From Sedimentisphaera cyanobacteriorum (GTDB taxonomy: Bacteria > Planctomycetota > Phycisphaerae > Sedimentisphaerales > Sedimentisphaeraceae), in contig NZ_CP019633.1 of NCBI RefSeq assembly GCF_001997385.1, forward strand, positions 930,001 to 962,000: 32,000 nucleotides of DNA, in the 5' to 3' direction. The translations under genes were made by a program, and so were the position numbers. How positions within the stretch are numbered: position 1 is the first letter of the stretch; each line of letters starts with the position of its first letter. The notes beneath the pieces were generated by a model that was not told the origin of the DNA, made no database searches, and was given only the letters and a program-made list of their open reading frames with translations. This document shows positions 9,904 to 30,882 of this stretch, one piece after another.

Positions 9904-9926
9904 CAGAAATTGATTATGAAGCCCAT

Positions 9927-9962: not shown

Positions 9963-9971
9963 TATTAATCC

Positions 9972-9999
9972 TTGACATAGCTAAAAAATAATCTAAACT
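9972..9999 (+). promoter_or_regulatory. Putative sigma70-like promoter for the riboswitch-led transcript
   Basis: TTGACA (9972-9977), a 16-nt spacer, then TAAACT (9994-9999), about 30 nt upstream of riboswitch helix P1. Promoter consensus in this lineage is not known to me. Confidence 0.4.
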
Positions 10000-11655: not shown

Positions 11656-12411
11656 ATGAACAGAAGACTAAAAAATCAGGGATTTACGCTCATCGAGCTT
11701 TTGACAGTAACAGCTGTTATCGGAATGCTGATTGCATTATTACTTCCAGCTCTGAACAAGGCAAGGCAGGAGGCTAAATCTTCTGTATGCAGGAACAAGC
11801 TCAGACAGATGTCCTTAGCTGCCAGCGCTTACAACAACACCTATGACGGCTATTTCCCCCCTGCTTACGACTTCAAGAAAACTGATTCCGGATTTTTAAA
11901 CATAAACTGGGATTTCATAATAGAAAATTCAACCAAAATTAAACCCGGACTGCTGTGGATGGGAGAAAGTCAGCCCGAGATTCAGCAGTGCCCTTCATTC
12001 AAAGGAAATTCCAACACACCGTCAGACATATACACAGGCTACAATTACAATACAAGCTATATAGGCCGAGGGGCGAATGAAACAATAAGCAGACCGGCTA
12101 AAATTGAAGAAATAAGCCGCCCTTATCGTTGTGCTGTTTTTGGAGATGGTGAATTTTCCGGCGGGGCTAACAAGTTTATGCGAAGCCCTGAGCCAAGCAG
12201 ATTCGACAAGTCTTTCAGCGGAAGAAACGCAGGCACGCAAGGTTTCAGGCATAACGGAAAAACCAGCATTGTCTGGGCAGACGGCCACGCAAGCTCACAG
12301 CGAAAATGTTTTGCTGAAAGAAGCGATGCAAGCAGAAGCGATATAGAAAACATTGCTGAAGGCACAGGATTTTTGTCCGCAGACAACTCTGCATACAGCC
12401 TGAAAAAATAA
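11656..12411 (+). CDS. Prepilin-type N-terminal cleavage/methylation domain protein, DUF1559 (H-X9-DG) family pseudopilin-like
   Basis: The N-terminus QGFTLIELLTVTAVIGMLIALLLPAL is a class III signal (G|FTLIEL). The C-terminal H-NGKTSIVWA-DG is an exact H-X9-DG motif. Confidence 0.9.
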   Translation: MNRRLKNQGFTLIELLTVTAVIGMLIALLLPALNKARQEAKSSVCRNKLRQMSLAASAYNNTYDGYFPPAYDFKKTDSGFLNINWDFIIENSTKIKPGLLWMGESQPEIQQCPSFKGNSNTPSDIYTGYNYNTSYIGRGANETISRPAKIEEISRPYRCAVFGDGEFSGGANKFMRSPEPSRFDKSFSGRNAGTQGFRHNGKTSIVWADGHASSQRKCFAERSDASRSDIENIAEGTGFLSADNSAYSLKK

Positions 12412-12441
12412 AAGGCCGCCCAAAAAAAACAGACGGCCTTT
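12411..12441. terminator. Hairpin between convergent genes, likely terminator (better T-tract for the minus-strand operon)
   Basis: Stem aaaggccg (12411-12418) / cggccttt (12434-12441) with an A-rich 15-nt loop. Read on the minus strand the stem is followed by tatttttt. On the plus strand the trailing T-run is weak. Confidence 0.55.
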
Positions 12442-12464: not shown

Positions 12465-12842
12465 TCAGTCTGCCTTAATATCATGGTTTAAGCCGATAGA
12501 CTTATTGTAAGTATTGAAAAGGCTCATCATCGAAGCCATCTCTATGGCTGCTGTAATTTCTTCATCAGTTATGCCCTGCTGCTTGGCAAGAGCTCTGTGG
12601 GCATCGATGCAGTAGCTGCAACCATTAGCCGCGCTCACAGCAATCGCTATAAGCTCTTTGGTTTTTCCATCCAGCCCAGACCCAGCGGTTTCCATAACCT
12701 TCAAAACGCCTTCGAGGAAATTGCCGTTTCTGCCCATAGCCTGAAAGGTTTCGGGCACGAATCCAAAATTCTTTTCCAGATTATTTTGAATCTCGACAGC
12801 CTTTTCATCTCCTGTTTTGTTGTAAAGTTTTGTAATAGCCAT
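12465..12842 (-). CDS. Carboxymuconolactone decarboxylase / AhpD-like family protein (CxxC)
   Basis: 125 aa. The AhpD-core signature is AIAVSAANGCSYCIDAH (C-x-x-C-x-x-x-H). An AAGGGAAAC RBS sits in the 12-nt gap after the upstream stop. Confidence 0.8.
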   Translation of the reverse strand: MAITKLYNKTGDEKAVEIQNNLEKNFGFVPETFQAMGRNGNFLEGVLKVMETAGSGLDGKTKELIAIAVSAANGCSYCIDAHRALAKQQGITDEEITAAIEMASMMSLFNTYNKSIGLNHDIKAD

Positions 12843-12854
12843 AAATGTTTCCCT

Positions 12855-13625
12855 TTATAAATATTGATATTTTAGTACAGCTTTATAAACCCCGTTGAGC
12901 CGATCTGAACAGACCTTTGATGGAGGGAAGTCGGTATTGCGAGGCTGAAGCCTAATACTTCCCTCATTTTCATAATATACTCTCTTAAAGGTAGCCTCAA
13001 AAGGGTCTTTGAATCTTACGAAGCAGTCATCACCGTTGTTCACAGCTCTTGAAGGCGAGAAGACCACAATATCTCCCTCGGAGTATTCGGGCATCATTGA
13101 ATCCCCCACCACCCTCACAGCAAAAGCGTTTGGATCGTTCAGCCCTGGGCAATTGATGTATTCATCAGCAAAGCCGGCAGGGTAAGACAAATCCCCAAAC
13201 TCAGCCGGATAGCCGGCACTGACTTTATTGATTACAGGAATAACCCCGGAAACACTGTTGCTGCGAAAATCTTTTATGTCTAAATGATGCTTCTCGAGAA
13301 ACTGCCTAACCTGTCCGGTATTATCTTCCTGGAGCATTTCAGAAAGAATCCGCCTGAACCTTTCATTTTCCACAAATGAACCTTCGATCTGGTCTCTCAA
13401 AGGCATAGGCATTTTTTTCATCTCGGCCAGATATAACAGCTCGCCCCTGTCAAAACCAAGCAGGTCTTCCAGTTTCGTCAAAAATTCCTGCCCGGGAGGA
13501 TTGCGGACTTTCCCTGTTTCAACGGTGGATATATACGGCTTTGAATAGCCGATCTTCTCGCTTACTGCGTCGAGTGTAAGCCCAAGTTCTTTCCTTCTCT
13601 TCCTTATTATCTTTCCAAGTACCAT
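12855..13625 (-). CDS. XRE-family HTH + peptidase S24 (LexA/CI-like) autocleavable transcriptional regulator
   Basis: 256 aa with an N-terminal HTH_XRE (IRKRRKELGLTLDAVSEKIGYSKPYISTVETGK). IPVINKVSAGYPAEF aligns with the LexA VAA-GEP scissile Ala-Gly region. S24 catalytic Ser is in VVGDSMMPEY and Lys in ATFKRVY. Confidence 0.85.
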   Translation of the reverse strand: MVLGKIIRKRRKELGLTLDAVSEKIGYSKPYISTVETGKVRNPPGQEFLTKLEDLLGFDRGELLYLAEMKKMPMPLRDQIEGSFVENERFRRILSEMLQEDNTGQVRQFLEKHHLDIKDFRSNSVSGVIPVINKVSAGYPAEFGDLSYPAGFADEYINCPGLNDPNAFAVRVVGDSMMPEYSEGDIVVFSPSRAVNNGDDCFVRFKDPFEATFKRVYYENEGSIRLQPRNTDFPPSKVCSDRLNGVYKAVLKYQYL

Positions 13626-13644: not shown

Positions 13645-14343
13645 TCAATGAAAGTTTATGCAGAAGAAAGTTAAAATAAAACCATTACTTACCATATAAT
13701 CATAATAGAAACAGACGCCTGAATCACGTAAAAAATTTTTTTGCATATAATTTGAATTCGGCAGAATCTTAACAGCCCCGTTATTGCGGTAATCAAGTAT
13801 GATCTCGTCAAAATTCATAAACCTGTCTTCAATATTCCCGAAACACTTGCCAACAGATTCCCTCAGAGAAAATGATATCCCCGCCCTTTGCTTGCTGCGG
13901 TCTGAAACAATCTGGCAGTATTCCCTGTGAGGAAGAAAATTTTTCAAATCTTCTGCGTCTATATCGTTCAAAAGCTCCATATCCGCCCCTATGCTTTTGA
14001 AACTGCTTTTCTGAGCAGCGGCTGCAAAAACCAGCCCGCCTGAATGGGAAATTGTACATGTTATACCGCTTGGGGCTTTAACGCTGCCGTTGGAGTTTAC
14101 AGTAAGGTCGCTGTAAGAGACTCTCATACTGGACAATATTTTTTTGAGCAGATGCCTGCCGGCAGAGAATTCCTCTAACCTCTTTTTTCGAGCGTCTTTG
14201 ACGGCCTCTCTCTCTAATGCAGAAAGCTCGCTGGTGTAGTCTGAAGATTGGGCAATCTCAAAACGAACATCAGAAGGGAGTATTTCTCTCCAGCTCTTAG
14301 CAAGGGCTCTTAGCATTTCAGTTTGCTTGGATAATCTGATCAA
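13645..14343 (-). CDS. 4'-phosphopantetheinyl transferase (Sfp/EntD type)
   Basis: 232 aa. EFSAGRHLLKKIL, TISHSGGLVFAAAA and IGADMELL (G-x-D-x-E) plus SLRESVGKCF (the position of the [FW]-x-x-KE-[SA]-x-x-K motif) match the EntD/Sfp layout. Start is ATG at 14343 (26-nt overlap with the NRPS 3' end) or ATG at 14316 (1 nt after the NRPS TGA). Confidence 0.75.
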   Translation of the reverse strand: MIRLSKQTEMLRALAKSWREILPSDVRFEIAQSSDYTSELSALEREAVKDARKKRLEEFSAGRHLLKKILSSMRVSYSDLTVNSNGSVKAPSGITCTISHSGGLVFAAAAQKSSFKSIGADMELLNDIDAEDLKNFLPHREYCQIVSDRSKQRAGISFSLRESVGKCFGNIEDRFMNFDEIILDYRNNGAVKILPNSNYMQKNFLRDSGVCFYYDYMVSNGFILTFFCINFH

Positions 14344-17300
14344 TTTTTCCCCTGATGAATGCCGGCAAAACTTTCGACTTCCTGATAATAAAACCGTGGT
14401 CGCCGGGAATCACTTTAAGCTCTACATTATTAACAAAATTCTTCCATCCAAGCGCAGCTCCCCTTAGAAGCCAATGCTCTCTTTCTGAAGCGGTGCAGAG
14501 TATTATATCCCCATCGTATTTATGTATTTTATGGGTTCTGGCGGCATTGAGATTCATCTTATAAACATCTTCTCTGTTTGAAACATATTTATTCTTGATT
14601 TCATCGTCCTGCCTGCTGAAATGCTCCCCTATAATCTCCTCCACGCTTTCAAACTGCTTATGCTTTTTCAGATAAGAAATAATAAACTTAAACATACCAA
14701 CAGGTCCAAGCGAGGCCAAATTCCAAGCTAAGTCAAAGTAGTAGGGCAGATTAATGTCAGCAGGAGGCATTGAGGGAACGTCCACCATAAGCAGCATACC
14801 TACCTTCCTGCCCATATCTTGGAGCATCTGAGCCATCTCATAAGCAATAAAGCCGCCAAAACACCATCCTAAAAGCAGATACGGGCCTTCAGGCTGAAAA
14901 TCAAGCAGCAGGTTTACGTAATACTCCGCCATCTCAGGAAGCGTTTTATGGGCTTTATTCAAATCAGACAGCCCGGCAGACTGGAATCCATAACAGGGCT
15001 GGTCTTTGCCAAGGTGATGAACCATATTTGCATAGCCGAGCACATCGCCGCTCAGCGAATGAATAAAATAAACAGGCAAACGCTGCCTGCTGCCTTTATT
15101 CAGCTCAACAAGGCATTTTTCCTCACTGCTGTCAGCACCCCCTGCGTTCTTAAAATCAAGAAAACCTGCCAAACCGGCTATTTCAGGATACTGAAGAATT
15201 TTTTCTATGCCAACGAACAGACCTCGTTCAGAAAGCAGGGAATCCATTTTTATCAGCATCAGCGAATGGCCGCCAAGGTCGAAGAAATTGTCATAAACGC
15301 CGAAATCGCTCCTTTCCAGAAGCTGCACCCAGATATCACGCAGCACTTCTTCCATAGGATTGCGAGGCATTACAATACCCGAACCAGCCTTTTCGCTCTG
15401 CGATAGCCCCTCTTGGGCACTTTTAAGCAAAGCATCACGGTCTGTCTTGCCGTTCTGGTTTAACGGAATTTTATCAATAGTGAAAATTTGAGCGGGCTGC
15501 ATATAATCCGGAAGTTTGCCTCTAATATAAGCACGCAGATCTTCTTCTTTGAAAGACTGCCGTTTTTCGGGAACCGCAAACAGCAGCAGTTTTTTTTCTG
15601 ACCCGGAGCTATCTGATGCAGCAACAGCCGCCTCTTTCACCCCGGCGTATTCCATAACAGCCTTCTCAATCTCCCCGGGCTCAACACGAAAACCGCGAAC
15701 CTGAATTTGAGAATCCTTCCGGTGAATGAACTCAAGATTCCCGTTTTCCTTTCTGCAAACTATATCACCTGTGCGATACATTCTCTCTGCCGGGTTAAAC
15801 GGGCTTTGGACAAATTTTTCTTTCGTCTCATCTTCAAGGCCGAGATAACCGCGAGCTACGCTTTTTCCGCTTATGCATAGCTCTCCCTGCCCGCCTTTAG
15901 CTGCAGGCTTTAGATCCGGACCTAATATATGAGCCTTATTCCCAGAAATCACATCACCTATATCGGGCAATTCGTCATTTCTTCCAGCTGGAGAAACCTT
16001 GCCGCAGGTTGCTATAACGGTGCATTCTGTAGGCCCGTATTCGTTGTACAAATCAAAACTCAACCCCTCAGGCGGGCGCTTGCTGAGTCTTTCGCCGCCG
16101 GTTTTAAGAACCTTTAGACTGCAATCACAAGGCCAATTTTCGAAAACTGCAAGCTCTGCAAGACGGGTAGTCATATCGCATATAGTTATTCGATTAGCGC
16201 AAAGCCAATCAATCAGTTTTTCGATATTGAAAATAATTCTCTCAGGCGGTATATGAACGCTTGCACCGGCCATAAGATAAGGCCAAATCTCGGAGACAGA
16301 TGTATCGAAACAAGTTCTTGCCAGATTGCTCGCTCTGTCTGAAAGAGAAATCTTGTAAAAATTCACCTGCCAGTTAATAAGGTTCTTTAGGCTGCGTCTT
16401 TCTACTTCAACCCCCTTCGGCCTTCCTGTGGAACCAGAAGTGTATATCACATAAGCAAGGCTCTCCTCTGAAACATCAGAACAAATCCGCTTTTGCCTCT
16501 CTTTGTTTTTCAATTGCTCTATATCAACATCTATAAAAGGCACTGCTTCCAATAATTTCTCATAATGCCGGTTTTTCGAGGCAAAAACGCAGGACACCTG
16601 AGCGTTTTGAATTATATAATTTATTCTCTCCTCAGGATAATCCGGATCTACAGGAACATACCCCCCTCCCGCTTTCAGCACAGCCAGCGCAGCTGCAGTA
16701 AATTCTATACCTCTGTCATACAAAACTGCGACCCTGCTGTCTGCCTTTACCCCGGCACTTATCAGCTTGGAGGCAAGCAGATCTGTTACCTTGTCCAGCT
16801 CTTGGTAAGTAAGATAATGTGAATAATCGCAAACAGCGGGTTTATCGGGATTCAATTCTGCATATTTGACAAAGCTTTTCGGAACTTCAAGCTCTGAGTC
16901 TTCTGTGCTAACGTTTTCTATATTCTCAAATGTGCTTGAAGGCAGAAAATCAGAAAGATTAGAGTTTGGTGAGGCAATTATCTTATCAGTTATCTCAAGC
17001 AGCTCATTGGAGAGTTTGCTGATTACAGAATAGTTGAAGATATTTGTATTGTATTCAAACCAGCCCTCAATAATTCCGTCTCGAGATTCGAGATCTAAGG
17101 TCAAATCAACTTTTGCGGTATTATTCCCAATATCATCAACACGTATTCTGCAGCTGCCCAATTCTGATTCCGGCGTATGAGCATTTTGAAAACTGAATAA
17201 ATGCTGAAAAACCGGATGAGCTGAAGGATACTTTACCAAATTCAGCTCCTGCACCAGATTTTCAAACGGGTAATTCTGATTTGTAAAGGCTTGAACGGTG

Positions 17301-20300
17301 TCAGTTTTTATCGAATCCAGCAGCGAAAAGACACTTTTCCCCCTCGAAACATTCAATTTTTGTACTATGCTGTTTATAAAAAGCCCAACAAGCTGTTCTG
17401 TTTGAGAATTAGGGCGATTTGCTATTGGAGAACCGATTATTATCTCATCTGTCTCAGAATGTTTTCTAAGCATAATTGAGTATGCAGTGAGAAGAAGCAT
17501 ATATTCAGTAACCGAATGCCTGCTGCAGAAATTATGAAACTCATCGCTTCTGTCTTTTCCAAAATTAAAATAATACCTTCTGCCCTCAAATGTCTGAGTT
17601 TCCGGTCTGGGTAAAGTGCAGTCGAGCTTTAATAGTCCTTTTATTCCATGAAGTTTGTCTATCCAAAATCTTTTCTGCGACTGAGCATCTTCAGAGCTCA
17701 GCCATTTCTGCAGCCATAGAGAATAATCGAAATATGAAATCTCCGGCCTGAATTTTTCTATGTCGCCGCCGATTAAAAGATTTTCGTAAATACCCTTCAA
17801 CTGCTTTTCAAAAACGCCGAGAGAGAAGCCGTCGAATACAGCATGATGAAAACCTGCAAGTAGGCTGTAAGTTTGAGAATCGTATTTGATAAGAGAAAAC
17901 CTGCAAACTTGGCCTTCCTTTAAGTCGAATCTGGAATCTCTAAACCCGCAGATAATCTCTTCAGATAAATCTTCAGCCTTATCATCCGGCATATTAGAAA
18001 GATCATGAAAAACATAATCAACTTGATGGTCTTTGCTTTCCTTTATGAGATACGAATCAGATATTTCAAACTTCAGCCTCAAACACTGCTGATATTCGAC
18101 AAGCTTTTTAACGGCAAGCTCAAGAAGCTCAACGTCTAACTCTCCTAATATCTCAAAATTGCATATAATACTGCAAATGTTAATTTCGGGCACAAACGAA
18201 TCCAAAAGCCACATGTGAATTTGTGAAGGAACAGCTGGAGATTCATTTAAATAAGTTGGTTCTATTTCTACAGACTGCTCATTAGATTTTGAGTCTGCCT
18301 TTTCTGCTAAAGAAGAAATATATGGAGATTTGAAAAAATCTGTGATATTTATATTTGTTCCGAATTTATGGTTAATCTTTGAAACAACCTTAAACGCCAT
18401 TAATGAATGACCGCCTGACTGGAAAAAATTGTCTTCCGATGAAAAGTTAGAATGCCCTAATATCTCAGACCAGATCTCAGCTATAGCCTTTTCTGTATTA
18501 CTTTTTATCGCCGGCTTATTCTCGCAGGATAATTCAAGGCTTTTTTCATACTCGTAAGCTTTATGTTTTAGCAATTCTCTGTCAATCTTGCCATTTGTAT
18601 TCATGGGGAAATCGTCTAGAGGTATGATATAAGCTGGTATCATATATTCCGGCAGGTTGTTAATCAACGTTTCCTTAAGCTTATCCTTATCAAAATTGCT
18701 CTGTTCATTTAACGTAACAAAACAGCAAAGTTTTTTTGCCCCCGCTGATTCTAAATCAACAGCAGCAGCCTGACTGACAAATTCATACTTCAGGGCAGCC
18801 TTTTCGATTTCACTCAGCTCGACCCTGAACCCGCGTATTTGTATTTGGAAGTCTTTCCTGCCTATATAGTCAATATTCCCGTCCGGCCTTCTTCTAACCA
18901 CATCCCCTGTTTTATACATCTTCAACCCGGGCACAAATGGGTCATCAAGAAAACGTTCTGCAGTTTGTTCGGGCAGATTAACATAACCTCTGCCCACACA
19001 GGGGCCGCTGATAAAAAGCTCACCCTCACAGCCTTCTTCTACGGGTTTTAAGCTTTCGTCCAGAATATAAGCAAAACTTCCCGGAACAGCTTTACCTATG
19101 TGCGGGAATTCACCGGACTCTTCTTTATGACCGATTATTCCTGAAGTGCTTGTAACACAGCATTCAGTTGGGCCATATTCATTGAAGAACGTAAAAGGCA
19201 AAGACCCAAGGGGGAATTTTTTGAGTCTGTCTCCTCCTGTTTTCATAATTCTGAGCGAGATATTATCCGGCCAGTTTTCAGAGATAACGATCTCTGCAAG
19301 AGGTGTTGTTACATCAGCAACAGTAATCTCATTCTCGCAAATCCATTTTATAAGTTTATTAGGGTTATAAACGGTATCCGCTTCAGCAATATGAACGCTG
19401 GCTCCACAAGATAAAGTTGGCCATATTTCTGCAATCGATGTATCAAAGCTAACCCTTGAGAGCTGGCTCATCCTGTCATTAGGTGTATAACTGTAAAAAT
19501 CATTTTCCCAGTCAACCAGATAGGCAAGGTTACGGTGCTCAATTTCAACGCCCTTAGGTCTGCCGGCAGAACCAGAGGTATAAATTGTATAGGCAAGAAA
19601 ATCAGGCGATAAAGAAACATTCAGCGGGTAATTATCAGAGTTCAAAAGCTTTTGGAGCTCAACGTCCAAAATCTGCTTTGTCTTTAGAGGAAATTCTGCT
19701 TCTGCGCAATTAAGAACAATATCAATATTTCCGTCTTCAAGTATGCAGCCAATTCTTTCATTAGGATATTTAACATCCAATGGAACAAAACATCCTCCTG
19801 CCTTCATAACTGAAAGACAGGAAACTATAAACTCAATACAGCTTGCCCCGTATATACCAACTTTGCATTCATTTTCCACACCTGAAATTTTTAGTTCATT
19901 GGCCAAAGCATCAGAAGCTTTCTCGAGCTGTTTGTACGTTAGAGAAGAATCGCCCTGCTCAACAGCAATTTTATTTGGGGTGTTTGATGAAAAAAGACTG
20001 ATCCTTTCAGGCACACTCTGGAAATTATAATTACGCTGAGAAGATTGAAGCGGTGCAAAAGAAATTAAATCAGAAACATAATTAACCCGGCCGGCAGTCA
20101 TCTTTTCTGCTGTATCAATAAAATCATCAGTTAAACCTTTAACAACTGATTCTGAAAACAAATCAGTGTTATACTCAAACCATCCCTTGATTATTCCTTT
20201 GGAATTTTCAAGGTTTAGGGTCAAATCTATCTTTGCGGTATGGTTGCCGATCTCATCAAGCTCAAGCTCCAAACCTGCAAAATTGATGTAAGGTATATGT

Positions 20301-23158
20301 GCATTCTGGAATATAAAATAATGCTGAAAAACAGGGTGCCTTGAATTATCCTTAGGCAGATTTAGAGTGGCCACCAGCTCTTCGAACGGGTATGTCTGAT
20401 TTTCAAATGCATCAAGTGTATCCGAATGCAATCTTTTAATGAGTTCATTGATTCCAGTTTTTTCAGCAAGATTGATCCTGTGCGTTATTGAATTAATGAA
20501 GAGGCCTATAATTTTATCGAGAGAAGGATCAGGCCTGTTTGAGATAGGAGAACCTATGACAATATCATCATCATTCGATTTATTTCTTAAAACAATTGCA
20601 TAAGCTAAAAGCAGAAATGGGTATTCAGTAGTCCCCAGAGACCTGCACAAATTTGTGATAAGCCCGCTTTGCTTTTCTGTTAATGAGAAGTATTCTCTAT
20701 CACCTTTGAAGGTTTGATAATCCGGTCTGCGGGTGACACAAGACAAATCTAATTTTCCGCTAATACCTTTAAGTTTATTCTTCCAGAATTTCAGCTGTTT
20801 GGCCGCTTCCCGGCCATCTAACCAGCTGTTAATCCAATCAGCATAATCGATATAATTTATTTCTGGGGGTGGAGGGAGAGTTTCATCTTCAGAAAGATAT
20901 GATATATAACATTCCTTTAAAAGCTTAACAAAAATCCCAACTGATGAACCATCTGCAATGCCATGATGAAACACAGAAACGAGCCTGTGGTTGTTAGTGC
21001 TTAGTTTTATGAGAAAAAATCTGCATACAGGCTCTGAATCCAGATTGAGGTCAATATTCCTGAATTCTTCAATTATTTCAGAAAGCTTGCTCTGAATCTG
21101 ATTTTCATTCAAATATGAAAGGTCTTTATAATCTAAACACTTCACGGGAGGCGTATCATCAGCAGAAATCATAAAATCATTAGAGTTCTGATCTAAATAA
21201 ACACTCATTCGGAGAGAATGCTGAGTTTCGATTATGTAATTAATAGTTTTTTCAAAAGCAGCCCTGTCCAGCAGTCCTTTTATCTTTACATCACAAACTA
21301 TATTGCATGCATTCAGATCGCCACTCAAAGAATCCAAAAGCCTCATGTGAATTTGTCCGGGGGTGGCGGGAGCTTTCTCAAGACCTTTGCTTTCAACCTC
21401 AATAACCGAGGCCTTATCAGACTTTTTCACAGCTTCAGTGAGAGACAAGACCGTTGGATTATCAAATATATCTTTTACTGATATGCTGCAGCCGAACTTT
21501 TCATTGATTCTTGAAGCAACCTTGAACGCTTTTAGGGAATGCCCGCCTGCATCAAAAAAATTTGTGTCTGCGGAAAAGTTATCATCGCCCAATACTTCTT
21601 CCCAAATTTCAAAAATCGCTTTCTCTTTATCAGAAAGTTCTTTTGGATCTGCATTTTCATTATTATCAGACAGATTGAAATATTCTCCTGAAGCCAAGGC
21701 TAAACGGTCAATCTTGCCGTTTAACGTCTTAGGAAGACTATCCAAAAATAAAATTTTTGAAGGCATCATATACGAAGGAAGATTCTCCGAGACAGCCTTC
21801 TTGAGTTTTTCCAAACATTTAGTATCCTTATCAGATGCTGCTGCAAAGGCAATGATCTTCTTCGATGCCTGGCCTTCCTGAAGAACAACTGCCGCCTCAG
21901 ATATATAAGGCTGCCTCAATATAACAGATTCGATTTCACCAAGCTCAATTCTAAAGCCTCTAATCTTGACCATCCGGTCTGTTCTGCCGTGAAATTCAAT
22001 GGTGCCGTCTTTGAGTTTTGCTCCAAGATCGCCTGTTTTATACATTTTATTTTTTGAGCTTTTGGAAAACTTATCCGGCAGAAATTTTGCTTTCGTGAGC
22101 TCAGGATCATTTAAATAACCTCTACCAACTCCTTCTCCAGCTATATAGATCTCGCCAACCTGCCCTTCTTTCACAGGGTTTAGATTTTCATCGAGGATAT
22201 AAACCCTCGCACCGGAAATAGGCACGCCGATATTGGGGGATATATTTTCGCTTTTTTCATGAGTTATTTCAGCATAGGTTGAAACTACCGTGCATTCGCT
22301 CGGGCCGTAATGATCGAACATTTTGAAAGGTGCATCGGGCTTTGGCGCCTTGCGAAGCGCATCTCCGCCGCTGAAAAGGTATTTCAGACGGCATCCTTCC
22401 GGCCAATCCAAATCTAAACAGCTCTCAGCTAAAGGTGTCGGCATAAAACAGGTATCCAAATTATTTTCTGTTACCCATTCTACTAATTTTTGAGGCTCAT
22501 ACAAAAGCTCTTCAGGGGGGATTGATATTGACCCGCCCGAAGCGAGATATGGCCATATCTCAAACAGCGATGCATCAAATGATGGTCTGGCGACCCAGCT
22601 AGTTTTAGTTCCTGCCTTGAAATTATAAGCAACAACCATCCAGTTAATAAAATTAGCAAGGCATCTGTGAGGTATAACAGTGCCTTTGGGCTCGCCTGTA
22701 GAACCGCTTGTGAATATTACATAGGCCAAATTTTCATCTGAGATTGCATTATCATCTCTTAGAGGCCTGCTTTCTTTGATACTGTCTGTTTCAACATCGA
22801 TAATTTCAGGACATACAGAAGACTGTAAAGGAGATATGTCAGGCTGAGAAAATACAAGCCTAATATCTGCATCTCTTATTATCATATCAAGACGGGCTTG
22901 AGGGAGCTTGGAATCTAATGACACATAAATGCAGCCGGCTTTCATAATGCCAAGTGCAGAGGCAATGAACTCAATACTTCTTGAAGTATAGATTCCGACA
23001 ATCTGGCCGGCAAGACCTTTATCCTCAATTATCTTGGCTATATTTTCAGATGCATTGTCAAGCTGACGGTAGTTCAGGGCTTGCTCACCCTGAATTAGAA
23101 CTGTGAGTTCAGGCGTTGCCTGTGCCTGCTCGAGGAACATATCGACAATATTATTCAT
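14318..23158 (-). CDS. Non-ribosomal peptide synthetase, three modules: A-T-C-A-T-C-A-T-TE
   Basis: 2946 aa. Domains were mapped by hand (aa, then nt on the minus strand).
- A1 1-490 (23158-21689): LNYRQL, YVIFTSGSTGEPKG, YKTGD, GRTDRMVKIRGFRIELGEIE, NGKIDR.
- T1 508-580 (21637-21419): FFDAGGHSL, Ser541 codon 21536-21538.
- C1 593-1025 (21382-20084): HHGIADG at 20968-20948.
- A2 1045-1530 (20026-18569): YTIYTSGSAGRPKG, NGKIDR.
- T2 1553-1625 (18502-18284): FFQSGGHSL.
- C2 1635-2065 (18256-16964): HHAVFDG at 17848-17828.
- A3 2090-2575 (16891-15434): YVIYTSGSTGRPKG, NGKTDR.
- T3 2598-2670 (15367-15149): FFDLGGHSL.
- TE 2685-2946 (15106-14321): GWCFGG.
I saw no E, MT, Cy, R or starter-C domain. 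Confidence 0.95.
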   Translation of the reverse strand: MNNIVDMFLEQAQATPELTVLIQGEQALNYRQLDNASENIAKIIEDKGLAGQIVGIYTSRSIEFIASALGIMKAGCIYVSLDSKLPQARLDMIIRDADIRLVFSQPDISPLQSSVCPEIIDVETDSIKESRPLRDDNAISDENLAYVIFTSGSTGEPKGTVIPHRCLANFINWMVVAYNFKAGTKTSWVARPSFDASLFEIWPYLASGGSISIPPEELLYEPQKLVEWVTENNLDTCFMPTPLAESCLDLDWPEGCRLKYLFSGGDALRKAPKPDAPFKMFDHYGPSECTVVSTYAEITHEKSENISPNIGVPISGARVYILDENLNPVKEGQVGEIYIAGEGVGRGYLNDPELTKAKFLPDKFSKSSKNKMYKTGDLGAKLKDGTIEFHGRTDRMVKIRGFRIELGEIESVILRQPYISEAAVVLQEGQASKKIIAFAAASDKDTKCLEKLKKAVSENLPSYMMPSKILFLDSLPKTLNGKIDRLALASGEYFNLSDNNENADPKELSDKEKAIFEIWEEVLGDDNFSADTNFFDAGGHSLKAFKVASRINEKFGCSISVKDIFDNPTVLSLTEAVKKSDKASVIEVESKGLEKAPATPGQIHMRLLDSLSGDLNACNIVCDVKIKGLLDRAAFEKTINYIIETQHSLRMSVYLDQNSNDFMISADDTPPVKCLDYKDLSYLNENQIQSKLSEIIEEFRNIDLNLDSEPVCRFFLIKLSTNNHRLVSVFHHGIADGSSVGIFVKLLKECYISYLSEDETLPPPPEINYIDYADWINSWLDGREAAKQLKFWKNKLKGISGKLDLSCVTRRPDYQTFKGDREYFSLTEKQSGLITNLCRSLGTTEYPFLLLAYAIVLRNKSNDDDIVIGSPISNRPDPSLDKIIGLFINSITHRINLAEKTGINELIKRLHSDTLDAFENQTYPFEELVATLNLPKDNSRHPVFQHYFIFQNAHIPYINFAGLELELDEIGNHTAKIDLTLNLENSKGIIKGWFEYNTDLFSESVVKGLTDDFIDTAEKMTAGRVNYVSDLISFAPLQSSQRNYNFQSVPERISLFSSNTPNKIAVEQGDSSLTYKQLEKASDALANELKISGVENECKVGIYGASCIEFIVSCLSVMKAGGCFVPLDVKYPNERIGCILEDGNIDIVLNCAEAEFPLKTKQILDVELQKLLNSDNYPLNVSLSPDFLAYTIYTSGSAGRPKGVEIEHRNLAYLVDWENDFYSYTPNDRMSQLSRVSFDTSIAEIWPTLSCGASVHIAEADTVYNPNKLIKWICENEITVADVTTPLAEIVISENWPDNISLRIMKTGGDRLKKFPLGSLPFTFFNEYGPTECCVTSTSGIIGHKEESGEFPHIGKAVPGSFAYILDESLKPVEEGCEGELFISGPCVGRGYVNLPEQTAERFLDDPFVPGLKMYKTGDVVRRRPDGNIDYIGRKDFQIQIRGFRVELSEIEKAALKYEFVSQAAAVDLESAGAKKLCCFVTLNEQSNFDKDKLKETLINNLPEYMIPAYIIPLDDFPMNTNGKIDRELLKHKAYEYEKSLELSCENKPAIKSNTEKAIAEIWSEILGHSNFSSEDNFFQSGGHSLMAFKVVSKINHKFGTNINITDFFKSPYISSLAEKADSKSNEQSVEIEPTYLNESPAVPSQIHMWLLDSFVPEINICSIICNFEILGELDVELLELAVKKLVEYQQCLRLKFEISDSYLIKESKDHQVDYVFHDLSNMPDDKAEDLSEEIICGFRDSRFDLKEGQVCRFSLIKYDSQTYSLLAGFHHAVFDGFSLGVFEKQLKGIYENLLIGGDIEKFRPEISYFDYSLWLQKWLSSEDAQSQKRFWIDKLHGIKGLLKLDCTLPRPETQTFEGRRYYFNFGKDRSDEFHNFCSRHSVTEYMLLLTAYSIMLRKHSETDEIIIGSPIANRPNSQTEQLVGLFINSIVQKLNVSRGKSVFSLLDSIKTDTVQAFTNQNYPFENLVQELNLVKYPSAHPVFQHLFSFQNAHTPESELGSCRIRVDDIGNNTAKVDLTLDLESRDGIIEGWFEYNTNIFNYSVISKLSNELLEITDKIIASPNSNLSDFLPSSTFENIENVSTEDSELEVPKSFVKYAELNPDKPAVCDYSHYLTYQELDKVTDLLASKLISAGVKADSRVAVLYDRGIEFTAAALAVLKAGGGYVPVDPDYPEERINYIIQNAQVSCVFASKNRHYEKLLEAVPFIDVDIEQLKNKERQKRICSDVSEESLAYVIYTSGSTGRPKGVEVERRSLKNLINWQVNFYKISLSDRASNLARTCFDTSVSEIWPYLMAGASVHIPPERIIFNIEKLIDWLCANRITICDMTTRLAELAVFENWPCDCSLKVLKTGGERLSKRPPEGLSFDLYNEYGPTECTVIATCGKVSPAGRNDELPDIGDVISGNKAHILGPDLKPAAKGGQGELCISGKSVARGYLGLEDETKEKFVQSPFNPAERMYRTGDIVCRKENGNLEFIHRKDSQIQVRGFRVEPGEIEKAVMEYAGVKEAAVAASDSSGSEKKLLLFAVPEKRQSFKEEDLRAYIRGKLPDYMQPAQIFTIDKIPLNQNGKTDRDALLKSAQEGLSQSEKAGSGIVMPRNPMEEVLRDIWVQLLERSDFGVYDNFFDLGGHSLMLIKMDSLLSERGLFVGIEKILQYPEIAGLAGFLDFKNAGGADSSEEKCLVELNKGSRQRLPVYFIHSLSGDVLGYANMVHHLGKDQPCYGFQSAGLSDLNKAHKTLPEMAEYYVNLLLDFQPEGPYLLLGWCFGGFIAYEMAQMLQDMGRKVGMLLMVDVPSMPPADINLPYYFDLAWNLASLGPVGMFKFIISYLKKHKQFESVEEIIGEHFSRQDDEIKNKYVSNREDVYKMNLNAARTHKIHKYDGDIILCTASEREHWLLRGAALGWKNFVNNVELKVIPGDHGFIIRKSKVLPAFIRGKIDQIIQAN

Positions 23159-23170: not shown

Positions 23171-23578
23171 TTACTTCGACAAAACAAAATTTATTTTGCC
23201 AGTTATTAAATAATACACAACTTTAAGCGCCTTCGCAGAAACTGTCCCTAAAATAATCCCCTTCAGGTCTGCATAGTAATCTGCGATGCAGTATTCTCTG
23301 CCGAAAAACTGCTGAGTATATTCATCAAGATAGCCCAATCCTGCAAGCAGGATGGCAATCATAAGGCTTATTAAAACACTTTTCCAGCTTGCAGCGCTGA
23401 AACTGAGATTATAAAGGAAAGCGAGCATAAAATACGCTGCAAAATGAACGGTTTTATCATTATAATTTCCCGCCTCGGGCAGCCAATCTGCCGGGATATG
23501 CGTAAGGAAAAAAAGTATAATCGTTGATACAACAGCAGCAAAAGCTGCATGATATTGAATTTTCAAAAGCATATTCAA
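23171..23578 (-). CDS. VanZ-like family integral membrane protein
   Basis: 135 aa with about 4 TM segments. VanZ-family motifs are NDKTVHFAAYFMLAFLY (DK..H...Y) and LDEYTQQFFGREYCIADYYADLKGIILG (DE..Q.f..gR....D...d..G). Its stop lies 12 nt before the NRPS ATG. Confidence 0.75.
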   Translation of the reverse strand: MNMLLKIQYHAAFAAVVSTIILFFLTHIPADWLPEAGNYNDKTVHFAAYFMLAFLYNLSFSAASWKSVLISLMIAILLAGLGYLDEYTQQFFGREYCIADYYADLKGIILGTVSAKALKVVYYLITGKINFVLSK

Positions 23579-23598: not shown

Positions 23599-25536
23599 TC
23601 AATCAAGCATACTCTGTATTGCATCAACGAGCGTGTCTCTGTCAACAGGCTTGGAAACATACGAATTGAAACCCTTGGCAAGGAGGCTGTCTCTGTCTCC
23701 CTTCATTGCCTTAGCTGTCAGCGCAATAACGGGAACTTCAAGTCCTTTCTCTCGAAGTTTTCTGAATGCTGTTACGCCATCCATCTCAGGCATCATTATA
23801 TCCATAAGTATAACATCATAGCTTGAACTTTCCAGCATATCAAGGGCGACCCTGCCGTTCTCTGCACTTTCAACTTTATACAAATCCCCTATCATCATCT
23901 GCACCGTAATCCTGCCGAATTTGTTGTCTTCAACCAAAAGAACGCGAGGCATTTTTATCTCTGTGTCCTCACCCTTGGACTCTCCAAATTCTGCGTTTTG
24001 ATAAATATTCAGCGGCTCTGATGATTTATCGTATTCCTCTCCGGGCAGCTGATAGCCGCTTGAGTGTTTTGCTTTGATCTTATCTAAATTAGCCGGAACA
24101 TAAAACTTGAAAGTAGTGCCTTTGCCTACCTCACTTTCAGCATCAATGCCGCCGCCGAGAAGCTTAAGCAGCTTTTTGCATATTGCAAGACCAAGACCCG
24201 TTCCTGAATATTTTTTTGTAGTAGAGCTGTCAACCTGTTTGAACTCATCAAAAATGCCGTTCATATCTTCTTTGTCAATACCAATACCAGTATCTTCTAT
24301 CTCAAAGTTTAACATATCGCCGCTTAGAGAGCATCTAAGATATACTGTGCCTTGTTCAGTGAACTTAACAGCATTGCCGAGTATATTAAGAAGTACCTGA
24401 TTAACCTTCTGCTTATCAGAATAAATTAGATCGGGCACGGAGCTGCCGATCTCAAGAGCAACTTCCACCTCTTTATCGCCGACCATCCCCTTTGCCACAC
24501 TTCTCAGAGGCAAAAGCAGCTCCTGGGGATCAAAGATATCGTATTTTATGTCCCGCCTGCCCGCTTCAATCTTGGATAGGTCGAGTATGTCATTTATTAA
24601 AAGCAAAAGCCTCTGTCCGCTTTCGTTTATTATTTTAAGACCTTCAATCTGTTTCTCAGTAAGGTTGTCCAGATTGTATTTGGAAAGTGTTTGAGAAATC
24701 CCAATGATTGCATTCATTGGAGTTCGTATCTCATGGCTCATATTTGCAAGAAAATCGCTTTTTGCATGATTGGCTCTCTCAGCAGCTTCTTTTGCCCTGA
24801 GAAGTTCAGAGACATCCATAAGAGTTATGATATACCCGCTAAGTTCGTTCACTCCCTGAACTGCATTAAGCTTCACCTCATAAACCCGCTTGCCGATTTC
24901 GTAAGTGCAAGGTTCAGAGGGCTCATTACAAGGCTGAGTTTTCATCTTGTCTGCCACAAAAGTGCCAAAATCGCCGAGGTCTTTCAAATACTTGCCTACA
25001 ATCGAGCTTCTCTTAGTATTAAAACAGTCAGCAAAGCGTTTGTTTACTTCAACTATCTTTCCATCCTCACCTACAGATGCTATACCATCATTAATATTAG
25101 CAAATATCGCCTTGAGCTTAGCCGCTTCTTCACGAACCCTCTTTTCGACTTTGTTCCTCTCAATTGCGTAAAGTATGAACTGCGGGAGAGAGTGAATCAT
25201 CTGGTCGTTTTTAACGATATAGTCTGAGGCCCCGTTTTTTATGGATTCAAGGCCAATCTTGTCGTCATCAAGGCCTGTGAGCACAATGATCGGTATATCT
25301 TCAGAACTCTTTTTCACGCTCGTGAGCGTAGCAACCCCTTCACTGTCGGGAAGGCCAAGATCAGTAAGTACAAGGTTATAACTGTTATTTTGAATGAAAT
25401 CCAAACCGGTTTTGAGGTCCTCAGCAAAATCTGCCTTGAGCAGATATGAGTGCCTGGATTTTTTGAAAGACAGCTTTATAAGCGAACTGTCGTTTTTGTT
25501 GTCTTCGATAACTAAAATCCTATTTTGTTCACCCAT
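23599..25536 (-). CDS. Hybrid sensor histidine kinase/response regulator (REC-PAS-HisKA-HATPase_c-REC)
   Basis: The ORF opens TTG-ATG (25539/25536); I take the ATG at 25536, which shares 1 nt with the wzx-like TGA (TGATG). The N-terminal REC has [10 protein letters not shown]...[14 protein letters not shown]-like segment has [28 protein letters not shown]. The H-box is [14 protein letters not shown], the N-box [11 protein letters not shown], and the G-boxes EDTGIGI and [10 protein letters not shown]. The C-terminal REC has VLLVEDNKF...[13 protein letters not shown]...ALTAKA. Confidence 0.9.
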
Positions 25537-27167
25537 CAAGAGCTCCCTTTCAATTTCTTATTAAAGAAATCCGCTACAAGCTTGTTTAAATCTGTTCTCT
25601 CCTGTTTTTTTATGCCGATTGCATAGAATAGTATCATATACATTCCGCACGACAGCGCTGATAAAAACACTAAAGCCAGAAGCTTGAGAATGCCTGAATG
25701 CTCAGCAAAATATCTTGCAATCATCCCTGCATCTTTGTCTGCAGCAATATTCAAAACCCCCGAAACAATAAGATGGTAAACAGTGTCTTTAAGGAAAAGA
25801 GTAACTGCTCCTATTACCAATCCAGTCATCAAACTTCCGAGCACAGAATATCTCAGGAAATAAAGCGGCGATACTTTTGCGAATCTGCAGGCTGTCGGTA
25901 CATTGTAAACACAGCCGAAGAAAATATTTGGGACTAAAGTCCCGATAGCTACGCCTATTATTCCCATCATTCTCACGAGTATAACACTAATTAACAAATT
26001 CGCAAGACACTCAATCACAGAAACTATCGCCAACTCCTTCTGACGGTCGCACATAAGCAGTATTTGGATAGAGCTGCTCCTCATCACAACGTAAAAATAT
26101 TGTGAAACCAGAAGGATTACAGCGCATATCTGACTTTCAGTTCTTGTAAGGTCAAGCCAAGTTTCAAAAAGCGGGCCGACGAAGACGACCAGCGGAACAA
26201 GCATCATTGTAGAAATAAAAGCTATCACCCTGCTGGAATAAAGCTGCATTCTGCCCAAAGAATCAAGGTCGCCTGAGGTGTGCATCACTGAGGCAACCGG
26301 GCCGAGGTTGTCGTTGAACTGCATTGCAAAACTGCGAAAAACATCGCCCAGCTTGCTTGCAACCTGATAATAAGCCACAAAAGCCACGCCGATACTCGCA
26401 GAGATTACCAAATTATCTGTCTTGAAGATGATAAGTTTGCTGCAGATTATAAGGTAAACGAATATCGAAAATCCCATAACCTCCTTAATCATTGAAGGCG
26501 AGAAAAACCGAAAGCCGATTTTCATATTCTCCAATTTTATAAAGGCGTATATCAGCATAACTATCTTGCTGCCTACGTGATTTAGAACTGTAGCAATTGT
26601 CATTTCCCAGAGGCCGTATCCGCTTTTTATAAGCCAGACCATAACAATAAGATTAATAACTGCAAAAACAGCATCTATATTATTTCTAAGCCAGATAAGC
26701 TGAATACCTCTGAGAAGACCGGGCGAGAAACCAACAGGAAAAATAAGAGCCGTCCCAAAGCCGAAAAGCAGAAAAACTTTTCTGTAGTAATCTACATCAC
26801 TGCCCGGCTCGAGTTTGCTTATAGGCTCAATGAAAAAGCTTATAATCACTGTAGCAGCTATGATGATAAGCGATATAAACCAGTAACTGAAAAAAACCGT
26901 CGATACGAGCCTGTTGAACCTGTCCCAGTTTTTATTTACTGTTACCTGACTTGCGTATTTCTGAACAGCTGTCCCTAAGCCGAAATCAAGGAGAAGTGAA
27001 TAACCGAATATCGTCCACAAAAGCCCCCAAAAGCCGTAATCCTGCCTTGAAAGCCCCGTAAACTGAACCCTTACTAATATGATCATTGAAATCATATTGA
27101 ACAGCAGAAGCCCATAGTTTGACAGGGTATTCAGGAACATCCTTTTAGCAACACTTAAGTTAGACAT
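25536..27167 (-). CDS. Polysaccharide biosynthesis/oligosaccharide flippase (Wzx/MOP superfamily)
   Basis: 543 aa and highly hydrophobic, with at least 12 predicted TM helices by eye. The N-terminal pattern of PF01943/PF13440-type flippases is present ([27 protein letters not shown]...[18 protein letters not shown]). Confidence 0.75.
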
Positions 27168-27229: not shown

Positions 27230-28444
27230 TCAGGAAAGCACTTCTTTCAGCAAGGATTTTGCATTATCCAAACGTTTTAACAGCTTTTTCCGCACAGACA
27301 TACTTTTCTTTTTAAATTCTTCCCTGTTATTGAGATGATAAGCAGTCTGTTCGTAAAGGCTTGAAAAATCGCAGTCTTCAACATTTCCGGCAGACTTAAG
27401 CCCAAATTCTGCAAGGAAATTATCCACCTTAGACCCCCTGCTTATGCCGATAAAAGGTACTTGTACAATCGAGGAAAGAATAAGAAGATGAAGCCTGCTG
27501 CTTATAACACAATCCAGATTGGAAATAAGGGCAAGTATATCAGCAGGCTCAAATCTGCCCTCAAGCAGCATTGAGTTTTCCGGATTCTTCATTTGATTTT
27601 TGAGCTGTCCCATCAATTCAGAGTCTGTTAAGGGGTTCATAGGAACAAACAATACATCAATGCCTTCTTTCGTGAGTTTATTGAGAAAATCTACAAGGCC
27701 TTTACTGTTTTCAACCTGACGCTGGGCTGAAATACAGATGCCGACTTTAGGTTTTCGGGAATCACAGAATTCAAATATCTCAGGTGCAAACGGTGCCTCC
27801 TGCCAAGGAGTCTTTTCCTGAATAAGAGCAGAATCCGCCCCAACCACGAGATTGCCTGCATTACCGCATTTTTTAACCTCCTGCTCTGTGGGGAAATCTC
27901 TAAGAACTGTTAAGTCTGTATTGCGAAGAGATTGAGCAATCCTCTCCCGCATCCTTTTATCTATTCTTGCGTTCGTCTTTTTGACAAAATCAGCAATCCC
28001 GAAAGTTAATGCGTCAGCTATTTGAAGCATAGTTTTCATTTTACCGGGCTGAAGCCTGTACATAAACGGATTCAGACTTGTATTCATACCTACACCCCAA
28101 ATTACGGTTTTAGTGCCGGCGTTTTGAGCTTTATTAAGCATATTCGTGGTTATATGCGGATAGTCTGAAAGCCCTGTGGCCCCGCTCCAGATAAATACAT
28201 CGCTTTGCTCTAAAGCCGCATCCATACTCCCGCATTCGGCTTCAGGCTCGAAATAGGCGAGCGGAACTGTTTTCACATTCAATTTATTCTCAGTAGGCTT
28301 CTTATCATCTGTACTTACAGTAATCTCGGAATTAGGTGCATATTCACGAACAATCTTTACTGCATTTTCGAGAATACACTCATCTCCAACATTATTGCAC
28401 CCAAACGGTACCCCGCCAAGCAAAACCTTTAATTTATCTTCCAT
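27230..28444 (-). CDS. Polysaccharide pyruvyl transferase family protein (CsaB/WcaK-like)
   Basis: 404 aa. N-terminal KVLLGGVPFGCNNVGDECIL and C-terminal CVISSRLHLLILSSIVQVPFIGISRGSKV match the PS_pyruv_trans (PF04230) layout. Confidence 0.7.
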   Translation of the reverse strand: MEDKLKVLLGGVPFGCNNVGDECILENAVKIVREYAPNSEITVSTDDKKPTENKLNVKTVPLAYFEPEAECGSMDAALEQSDVFIWSGATGLSDYPHITTNMLNKAQNAGTKTVIWGVGMNTSLNPFMYRLQPGKMKTMLQIADALTFGIADFVKKTNARIDKRMRERIAQSLRNTDLTVLRDFPTEQEVKKCGNAGNLVVGADSALIQEKTPWQEAPFAPEIFEFCDSRKPKVGICISAQRQVENSKGLVDFLNKLTKEGIDVLFVPMNPLTDSELMGQLKNQMKNPENSMLLEGRFEPADILALISNLDCVISSRLHLLILSSIVQVPFIGISRGSKVDNFLAEFGLKSAGNVEDCDFSSLYEQTAYHLNNREEFKKKSMSVRKKLLKRLDNAKSLLKEVLS

Positions 28445-29830: not shown

Positions 29831-30882
29831 CTTCTGCTTTCCTCATTGTTGGTAACGCCGGCGTAATCAAGTGTTTCGAAAGTAGGCATAATCTGACTGA
29901 TCAGATCGTTCCAGTTGGCTATATGTGTTTGGGGGACATACACTATATCTCCGGGCTTCAATTTGAAGTCCAGCATTTGGCCGTCAAGTATCTTGGGATA
30001 ATTTACAGTGAACACTACCGGATTGCTCAATCCGCCCCTTACAATTCTTATATCTTTCTTTCTCGCCCCAACTTTGAAGCCGCCGGAATAAGTTACTGCA
30101 TGGCTGACTGTCATATTGTCACGATACGCATAGGCAGCAGCAGAAGGTACTGCACCAAAAACATATATTTCCTGATTCCTTGTGGAAGGTATGTATATAT
30201 AGTCGCCGGGGAGAAGGGGTATATTATGAAGCATATCATGTTCACGTATTAGTTTTACAAAACTAACGGGAAGAGTTTTCCCGTCCCTTACTATATAGGA
30301 ATTTTCAAGATCGGCCATTTCTACGGTATTTCCCCGAAACATACCAGTTCGAAATCCTCCTGCAGTTGCAATCGCATCCAGCAGAGTCATCTGACTTGAA
30401 ATTGGGTAAGTTCCAGATGAGCCCACTTTACCGAGAATTGTATAGCTTCCGCTTTTCATCTGTACAGGATTTATTGTAACCCTCGGTTCCACAAGATACT
30501 TTTCGTAAGCCTTTTCAACTTTGGCGGTGGCTTCTGAAACAGAAAGCTCCATAACTTCTATATCTCCGACCAGCGGCAGAGAAATACATCCGTCTGTACG
30601 AACTGTCAGATTTGTCGAGCTCAGCTCAGTTTCGTTATACACCTCCACATCAAGCACATCAGACATTCCAATCGTATAGGGCTCCATCCGCACCTTCTGG
30701 AGCTCTCTGAGCTGTTCAACCACCTGCTGCTCAGTTCTTGGCCTTGCACCTACAAATGTATATGCGGCCTTGTCCATCTCAGGCGAATCTACTATATGCG
30801 GCACAAACCTTTCCCTGTCTGCGCAACCGAGAAAAAGCGAAACGAACAAAATGTAAATTGTGCATCTAGTCATTTTATACAT
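29827..30882 (-). CDS. Polysaccharide export outer-membrane lipoprotein (Wza family: Poly_export + SLBB domains)
   Basis: The ORF opens TTG 30885 / ATG 30882; the ATG shares 1 nt with the upstream TGA. A lipobox is present: SLFLG-C. Motifs include GMSDVLDVEVY, ISLPLVGDIEVMELSVSEA, and repeated SLBB-like GDYIYIP and GDIVYVP. Confidence 0.85.
   Translation of the reverse strand: MYKMTRCTIYILFVSLFLGCADRERFVPHIVDSPEMDKAAYTFVGARPRTEQQVVEQLRELQKVRMEPYTIGMSDVLDVEVYNETELSSTNLTVRTDGCISLPLVGDIEVMELSVSEATAKVEKAYEKYLVEPRVTINPVQMKSGSYTILGKVGSSGTYPISSQMTLLDAIATAGGFRTGMFRGNTVEMADLENSYIVRDGKTLPVSFVKLIREHDMLHNIPLLPGDYIYIPSTRNQEIYVFGAVPSAAAYAYRDNMTVSHAVTYSGGFKVGARKKDIRIVRGGLSNPVVFTVNYPKILDGQMLDFKLKPGDIVYVPQTHIANWNDLISQIMPTFETLDYAGVTNNEESRR

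Follow-up and report, generated by a model that had tools for sequence, protein, structure and literature searches.

We analysed a 32,000-nucleotide stretch of the genome of Sedimentisphaera cyanobacteriorum (Planctomycetota, Phycisphaerae), hereafter the window, whose minus strand carries a nonribosomal peptide synthetase (NRPS) gene ending in a thioesterase (TE) domain with a cysteine, Cys2766, at its nucleophile elbow (Table 1). The encoded protein is identical to AQQ08935.1 / WP_077539401.1, which is annotated in databases as 'surfactin synthase subunit 2', and according to Pfam its adenylation (A), thiolation (T), condensation (C), and TE domains are arranged as A-T-C-A-T-C-A-T-TE. Neither an epimerisation domain nor a starter C domain was found in the Pfam scan; given the lack of a starter C domain, the peptide should have a free amine at its N-terminus, unless it is modified in trans. 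The initial annotation of the window had recognized a genome of the Planctomycetes–Verrucomicrobia–Chlamydiae (PVC) type, as its planctomycetal origin bears out, and had read the cysteine as a sign of unusual release chemistry, with TEs that form four-membered rings as its examples. We favour a different reading, to which we assign a probability of about 0.65: that the NRPS ends in a functional type I TE from a clade in which the cysteine is fixed, that Cys2766, His2921, and Asp2793 form a triad of ordinary geometry, with the elbow following β5, the acid β6, and the histidine β8, and that the peptide is released onto a nucleophile other than water.

The minus-strand translation of the TE domain reads ...PEGPYLLLGWCFGGFIAYEMAQ...MLLMVDVPS...IPGDHGFI, and its identity as a terminal type I TE with cysteine at the nucleophile elbow is confirmed. 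The Pfam model PF00975 matches residues 2696–2796, after the third PP-binding domain, with 69.2 bits (cut-off 26.4); the match includes the elbow, GWCFGG. When all chains in the Protein Data Bank (PDB) were searched with HMMER, the best match was the TE of AB3403 (4ZXH/4ZXI; 250 residues aligned, E = 2.8e-24), which also has GWCFGG and in which the columns of the Asp (IDT in the AB3403 alignment) and of the His (PGDH) agree with those of our TE. The column of Cys2766 is occupied by the catalytic Ser in the SkyXY TE (GWSLG in 7CRN; the GWALG form in 7DXO). An AlphaFold2 model computed from a 21-sequence alignment (mean predicted local distance difference test score of 87.4; predicted template modelling score of 0.87) places the cysteine, Cys97 in the model, between a strand (91–96) and a helix (98–112), with Asp2793 right behind strand 117–123 and His2921 behind strand 240–248. 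In a Foldseek comparison with the PDB, 4ZXH ranked first, followed by the SkyXY TE, the Pks13 TE, the GbnD6 and oocydin TEs, the fatty acid synthase TE, EntF, NocB, and Vlm2; canonical triads are present in 4ZXH, in the SkyXY, Pks13, and fatty acid synthase TEs, and in EntF, NocB, and Vlm2. Counted from the start of the open reading frame (ORF) at 23158, the elbow codon is TGT, as initially annotated, and the Asp and His proposed at that time as triad partners are the residues found here in conserved columns.

The cysteine is selected and is neither a sequencing error nor a chance occurrence, because it is kept in the orthologue of Sedimentisphaera salicampi (GWCFGG; TE 87 per cent identical) and in nine other related loci with both possible codons. 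Across ten loci the codon is TGT in seven and TGC in three, and the adjoining Gly and Phe codons vary synonymously.

The wider relationships of the TE became visible only when 1.84 billion cluster representatives (50 per cent identity) were scanned exhaustively with HMMER, a word-indexed homologue search having returned 6 and later 35 relatives. The scan gave 33,408 matches, of which the best TE domains were inspected. Among the best 77 domains, the nucleophile position is Cys in 76 and Ala in one, and among all 154 inspected it is Cys in 105 and Ser in 44. In a rough neighbour-joining tree of 230 TE domains, whose sequences are about 30 per cent identical, our TE falls in a clade of 81 members, 80 with Cys and one with Ala. 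The triad acid column of this clade contains Glu (53 members), Asp (27), or Ser (1), and is therefore acidic in 80 of 81; the triad histidine is His in 78. By comparison, the acid column is Asp in all 113 Ser-type relatives, and Asn or Gly in some of the Cys-type relatives outside the clade. This variation among Cys-type relatives agrees with a remark in the literature that Cys-type TEs tolerate changes at the acid position.

Other positions also distinguish the clade. Its elbow motif is GWC[FYL]GG, and its oxyanion loop (residues approximately 2700–2708) reads H[ST]xPGDVLGY, as opposed to HPxGG in Ser-type relatives. A second cysteine, in QPCYGFQ (residue 2722; region about 14993–15058), is present in 53 of the 81 members; in the same column of the 113 Ser-type relatives, the four commonest residues, Phe, Val, Ile, and Leu, account for 106 sequences, and Cys is not among these four. 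Across the wider family, the nucleophile changed between Ser and Cys approximately 19 times on the 230-domain tree, and the Ser and Cys forms have the flanking motif PxGPYxLGGW[S/C]xGG in common. A separate scan of genome contigs gave, among the matches listed, at least 69 relatives with Ser, at least 10 with Cys, and at least one with Ala; the Sedimentisphaera genomes are absent from these matches. Clade members are nearly all metagenomic, one being from a metagenome-assembled genome (MAG) of Lentisphaerota. We found no characterised or solved member of the clade, and literature searches on the elbow motif and on the Stachelhaus codes of the A domains returned nothing relevant. Judged by its sequence, the TE is thus of a known kind, a Cys-type type I TE, and belongs to a large, mostly metagenomic, and uncharacterised clade in which the cysteine is fixed. 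From its position and conservation, we infer that Cys2766 is the catalytic nucleophile. Sedimentisphaera provides this all-Cys clade with a cultured and fully sequenced representative.

Cys-type TEs are a small and poorly understood NRPS release group that is of interest for natural-product chemistry and for peptide-cyclising biocatalysts. The initial annotation had described them as rare, which holds insofar as they are a minority of about 2 per cent of known TEs (PMC13288461), but they are not essentially limited to ObiF and SulM, the examples it gave. AB3403 of Acinetobacter baumannii (ABBFA_003403; A1S_0115 orthologue), the best solved match by both sequence and fold, resembles our TE in its GWCFGG elbow, the Asp after β6, the His in PGDH, a lid of about 100 residues, and a 4'-phosphopantetheinyl transferase (PPTase) in its gene cluster. 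It differs in being only 29.6 per cent identical, in scoring below all 150 best database matches, and in its architecture, a lone C-A-T-TE module, which activates Gly, works with an acylated acyl carrier protein, and has an uncharacterised release chemistry. On the rough tree, AB3403 groups with the TEs of three other loci (L047, L071, and L057) in a small Cys group that is nested among Ser-type TEs and lies outside the 81-member clade. AB3403 is part of the acinetin-505 cluster, which is needed for biofilm formation and surface motility (PMC5376624) and has also been linked to the pellicle. It is also the only other solved Cys-type TE named in structural papers on ObiF and SulM, and its triad acid is in the ordinary position (PMC6668435, PMC11298585).

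For other Cys-type TEs, release has been examined or proposed in the literature. The macolacin TE, MacB-TE, which is 90.6 per cent identical to the polymyxin PmxB-TE, has Cys89, Asp116, and His218; its cysteine is required for macrolactamisation via the amine of a diaminobutyrate (Dab) residue, and the C89S variant still acylates but hydrolyses only (PMC13288461). Likened to our TE by description only, MacB-TE and PmxB-TE have the same canonical Cys-His-Asp triad and the same 27-residue Cys–Asp spacing (C89–D116 and C2766–D2793), but their substrate is a lipodecapeptide, which they close into a ring via a Dab side chain, and they reportedly cluster with Ser-type cyclases. None of our best 150 matches combines the length of PmxB, which we take to be approximately 1100 residues, with a Thr-type code in the last module. 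SrbD, AntB, and BbchF, of the sorangibactin, anthrochelin, and bulbichelin assembly lines, are Cys-type TEs for which offloading onto homocysteine has been proposed, and for BbchF a hydrolytic product has been suggested as well (PMC13573596). Again likened by description only, they offer a precedent for intermolecular offloading onto an external amine, although their siderophore-type lines differ in having salicylate and thiazoline units. The thread common to the known Cys-type TEs is a thioester acyl-enzyme that nucleophiles other than water resolve, and this is also our best guess at the mechanism of the Sedimentisphaera TE.

In the Sedimentisphaera TE, the tripeptidyl chain on T3 would pass to Cys2766 in an energy-neutral transthioesterification, giving a peptidyl-thioester enzyme. 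This reactive peptidyl-S-Cys intermediate would then be attacked not by water but by another nucleophile, most likely an amine, whether the free N-terminus of the peptide, a side chain, or an external acceptor. Aminolytic or transfer release is suggested by analogy, because MacB-TE with C89S only hydrolyses and because release by SrbD and AntB onto homocysteine has been proposed. A strained β-lactone or β-lactam is not the product that we expect.

The A domains bear on which amine might be available. Stachelhaus residues, extracted by GrsA numbering and checked against 1AMU, give DAFFFGHVV for module 1, DTADKGEVT for module 2, and DTSDKGEVI for module 3. The first looks to be of an aliphatic type. 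We know of no code that matches either of the other two, and DTSDKGEVI is unlike what we take to be the codes for Thr and Ser. Its pocket is lined by Asp278, Lys299, and Glu322, and within the clade it is confined to the Sedimentisphaera subgroup. The last-module codes of the clade are mostly D-x-E-D-[IV]-G-[TSA]-[VI]-x or DILQLGMVW (proteins P0015–P0149), of which we presume the former, by comparison with pyoverdine codes as we know them, to specify basic amino acids, and the latter glycine. The number of modules also varies: S. cyanobacteriorum has three, as opposed to two in S. salicampi (locus L001, 10001–15709) and in MAG GCA_036681025 (locus L082, 10001–16567), where the codes are the first and the third. 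The extra segment is C1-A2-T2. The C domain of S. salicampi is 72 per cent identical to C2 and 42 per cent identical to C1, and A2 is only 44–49 per cent identical to last-module A domains, which points to an old insertion, deletion, or recombination event rather than a recent duplication.

Several considerations weigh against the reading that we favour. The members of the clade are known from their sequences, which leaves the mechanism putative, and the tree that groups them is rough at such low identity. The approximately 19 switches between Ser and Cys on that tree imply that the residue alone does not dictate the chemistry. The triad geometry is read from predicted secondary-structure positions. 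No internal nucleophile can be named, since the A-domain codes have no substrate match. Finally, plain hydrolysis to a linear tripeptide acid retains some probability.

Table 1. Features of the NRPS locus in the window, in the order of transcription of the minus strand, with the domains and catalytic codons of the NRPS listed below its gene.
Feature	Positions	Strand	Remarks
Chain-length-determinant-like protein	30882..31910	-	Matches EpsF/Wzz weakly; homologue of the L083 Wzz gene
Wza-like export protein	29827..30885	-	Poly_export/SLBB
Wzy_C, O-antigen polymerase/ligase family	28490..29830	-	
Polysaccharide pyruvyl transferase	27230..28444	-	
Wzx-like O-unit flippase	25536..27167	-	543 aa; no Pfam match; NCBIfam WZX_like E 3.7e-7, below cut-off
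Hybrid PAS histidine kinase / response regulator	23599..25539	-	4-nt overlap with Wzx-like gene; kept in L001, L082, L083
VanZ family membrane protein	23171..23578	-	135 aa; 12 nt upstream of NRPS; NCBIfam vanZ_1 40.5 bits (cut-off 20), Pfam VanZ; kept in L001, L082
NRPS gene	14318..23158	-	2946 aa
A1 adenylation domain	21659..23158	-	Code DAFFFGHVV
C1-A2-T2	18254..21391	-	aa ~590-1635; code DTADKGEVT
A3 adenylation domain, last module	15389..16864	-	Code DTSDKGEVI
Terminal TE domain	14321..15106	-	aa 2685-2946, 262 residues; type I alpha/beta-hydrolase, long lid of ~90 aa
Cys2766 codon, TGT	14861..14863	-	Nucleophile position, elbow GWCFGG
Asp2793, triad acid	14780..14782	-	At the canonical site, position I, immediately behind beta6; 27 residues past Cys2766
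His2921, triad histidine	14396..14398	-	PGDH, loop after beta8
Sfp-type 4'-phosphopantetheinyl transferase (PPTase)	13645..14343	-	26-nt overlap with NRPS stop; beside NRPS also in L001, L082, L083
HTH_3 + Peptidase_S24 (LexA-like) regulator	12855..13625	-	19 nt downstream of PPTase; kept in S. salicampi
125-aa ORF, last of array	12465..12842	-	Placed like the CMD-family (PF02627) gene of S. salicampi; position only
Terminator-like hairpin	12411..12441	-	12 pairs + T run, strongest of region, array end; consensus match only

The NRPS gene stands in a minus-strand array of eleven genes that runs from 31910 to 12465; four pairs of neighbours overlap, and no gap exceeds 62 nt (Table 1). The array has the look of a single operon in which a polysaccharide pathway is combined with the NRPS. 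The core of kinase, VanZ, NRPS, and PPTase genes is also present in S. salicampi and in MAG GCA_036681025, so that in three genomes a hybrid kinase and a VanZ protein of 133–135 residues (23171–25539 in the window, 7621–9989 at L001, and 7579–9982 at L082) precede the NRPS–PPTase pair, despite differing outer flanks at L082. The Wzx-like flippase is homologous to Polysacc_synt genes at three clade loci, adjoining the NRPS gene at L084 and L088 and lying about 6 kb downstream at L087.

Clade relatives lie within glycan clusters at L083, L084, L086, L087, L088, and L091. Some of them have unusual NRPS architectures: L084 (8001–11921) and L088 (8001–12221) each carry a GNAT-A-T-TE gene encoding approximately 1300–1400 residues, placed between a set of Bac_transf, Hexapep, STAS, SpoIIE, and Phosphodiest genes and, on the opposite side, the homologous flippase and glycosyltransferases, whereas the proteins at L086, L087, and L091 are A-T-C-Formyl_trans_N-A-T-TE (about 2400 residues) and are encoded beside glycosyltransferase, flippase, exosortase, and BacA genes. 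Unusual architectures were also noted at L085, and partner-switching regulators (SpoIIE/STAS) and a Phosphodiest gene (PF01663) are frequent neighbours of the unusual NRPSs. At L083, the neighbours are Bac_transf, Hexapep, and Wzz. In a cross-locus tblastn comparison, with queries taken from the clade's own loci, glycan genes were detected at 7 of 12 clade loci and at none of 80 control TE loci (1.3 Mb; Fisher P ~ 1e-7). Pooling the two Sedimentisphaera species, in a count whose lineages may be related, gives 6 of 11 lineages versus 0 of 80 controls (Fisher P ~ 7e-7). The controls are mostly Ser-type relatives from the genome-contig scan (69 Ser, 10 Cys, and 1 Ala). No glycan genes were seen at four of the 12 loci (L082, L085, L089, and L090).

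These neighbourhoods suggest a tentative alternative, which we consider possible though unlikely: that the Cys-type TE acylates an amine or hydroxyl group on a sugar, a polyprenyl-linked repeat unit, or another envelope acceptor with a short peptide, and that the Wzx, Wzy, and Wza proteins encoded nearby export the resulting peptide-decorated exopolysaccharide or glycolipid. The position of the NRPS inside an array of Wzz-like, Wza, Wzy, pyruvyl transferase, and Wzx-like genes is consistent with it, as are the clade relatives in glycan clusters, the homologous flippase next to the NRPS at L084 and L088, and the enrichment over the control loci. The predicted targets of VanZ-1 proteins are polyprenyl-linked glycan head groups (PMC12419801), and the TE of Pks13, a mycolate condensase, releases its product onto trehalose (PMC12933137). 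The Pks13 TE is the best NCBIfam match of our TE (E = 3e-18) and stands high in both PDB searches, but it has a Ser nucleophile, a polyketide synthase context, and a lipid substrate, and its identity of about 20 per cent in the fold alignment is at the general level of type I TEs. The basis of the glycan alternative is gene neighbourhood, and a free metabolite that is co-regulated with the glycan genes would give the identical pattern. Moreover, the clade may be phylogenetically narrow (PVC-like), in which case lineage-specific gene order could mimic an association, the tblastn queries originate from the loci under comparison, and a third of the clade loci do without glycan genes. We know of no peptide-bearing polysaccharide of such origin.

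The glycan alternative can also be put in a general form, which we likewise consider unlikely. The Cys-only clade may be a dedicated offloading domain that couples small NRPSs (A-T-C-A-T-TE, GNAT-A-T-TE, and A-T-C-formyltransferase-A-T-TE) to Wzx/Wzy-type pathways, with its Cys thioester as the donor of an aminoacyl or peptidyl group and a sugar or polyprenyl-linked glycan as the acceptor. Non-ribosomally peptidylated exopolysaccharides would then be made by Planctomycetota, Lentisphaerota, and uncultured relatives, in Sedimentisphaera under the control of the adjacent hybrid kinase and with the involvement of VanZ. If the link to glycans is functional, it would constitute a new route to cell-surface glycans decorated with non-ribosomal peptides.

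Plain hydrolysis is, in our estimation, improbable. Under this explanation, the TE would release a linear tripeptide acid and its cysteine would be a habit of the lineage that makes little difference to the chemistry, a reading favoured by the flanking motif that the Ser and Cys versions of the wider family have in common, by the repeated changes of nucleophile on the 230-domain tree, and by the hydrolytic product suggested for the Cys-type TE BbchF (PMC13573596). Against it, 80 of 81 clade members share the fixed cysteine across a deep divergence, with oxyanion-loop residues that co-vary, and in MacB-TE it is the change from Cys to Ser that yields hydrolysis (PMC13288461).

Closure of a β-lactone or β-lactam on the C-terminal residue at release, as by the TEs of ObiF and SulM, was the chemistry anticipated in the initial annotation, and we regard it as very improbable. 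Like those enzymes, the Sedimentisphaera TE has a Cys nucleophile and a short peptide substrate, and the three A domains of its NRPS recall SulI plus SulM. This last parallel is superficial: S. salicampi and the MAG relative have the same TE behind two modules. In the ObiF and SulM TEs, the triad Asp has moved to the loop after β7 (position II), Gly occupies the canonical site, and the domains group with type II TEs (PMC6668435, PMC11298585). The acid of the Sedimentisphaera TE is instead at position I, and a seven-sequence alignment of close relatives has no aligned conserved acid in the loop after β7. The nucleophile is flanked as Trp-Cys-Phe, versus Gln-Cys-Asn in SulM (the SulTE criterion), and the last-module code, DTSDKGEVI, has only the invariant Asp235 in common with the diaminopropionate (Dap) code of SulM, DVWEMNADDK. 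The window has 22 ORFs that encode 150 residues or more, four of which are the NRPS gene and three ORFs lying within or opposite annotated genes; in the other 18, no Pfam family indicating a sulfotransferase (SulN), Dap synthesis, a SulG/H-like protein, or a β-hydroxylase was found. The criteria published for SulTE-like domains further include positively charged residues at two of the three arginine positions of SulTE. The PDB sequence search, in which RifR had E = 1.2, listed neither ObiF1 nor SulM up to E = 10, and neither was among the top 50 Foldseek matches. The TE is thus not an analogue of those of ObiF and SulM, and the inference of a four-membered ring is unsupported. More generally, a cysteine at the elbow does not by itself flag β-lactone or β-lactam chemistry, and the acid position and the clade need to be checked too.

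There is only a negligible chance that the true codon is TCT or AGT, Ser codons one substitution away, and that TGT arose as an error of sequencing or assembly, or that the domain is decaying, given that the identical NCBI protein derives from a complete 2.95 Mb genome, that the cysteine recurs in independent assemblies, at the locus of the orthologue and at nine others, and that the ORF is intact and the triad complete.

Two ORFs antisense to the NRPS gene (14948–15406 and 21363–21881, plus strand), which have similar counterparts at L001 and L082–L088, were rejected as genes; they look conserved between loci only in that they mirror the conserved coding strand of the NRPS. Elsewhere on the plus strand, the window encodes a prepilin-type N-methylation/DUF1559 protein that is typical of planctomycetes (11656–12411) and a PEP-CTERM-anchored protein (5078–5791). 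The PEP-CTERM/exosortase theme appears again beside a clade relative, in the form of EpsH/EpsI at L091.

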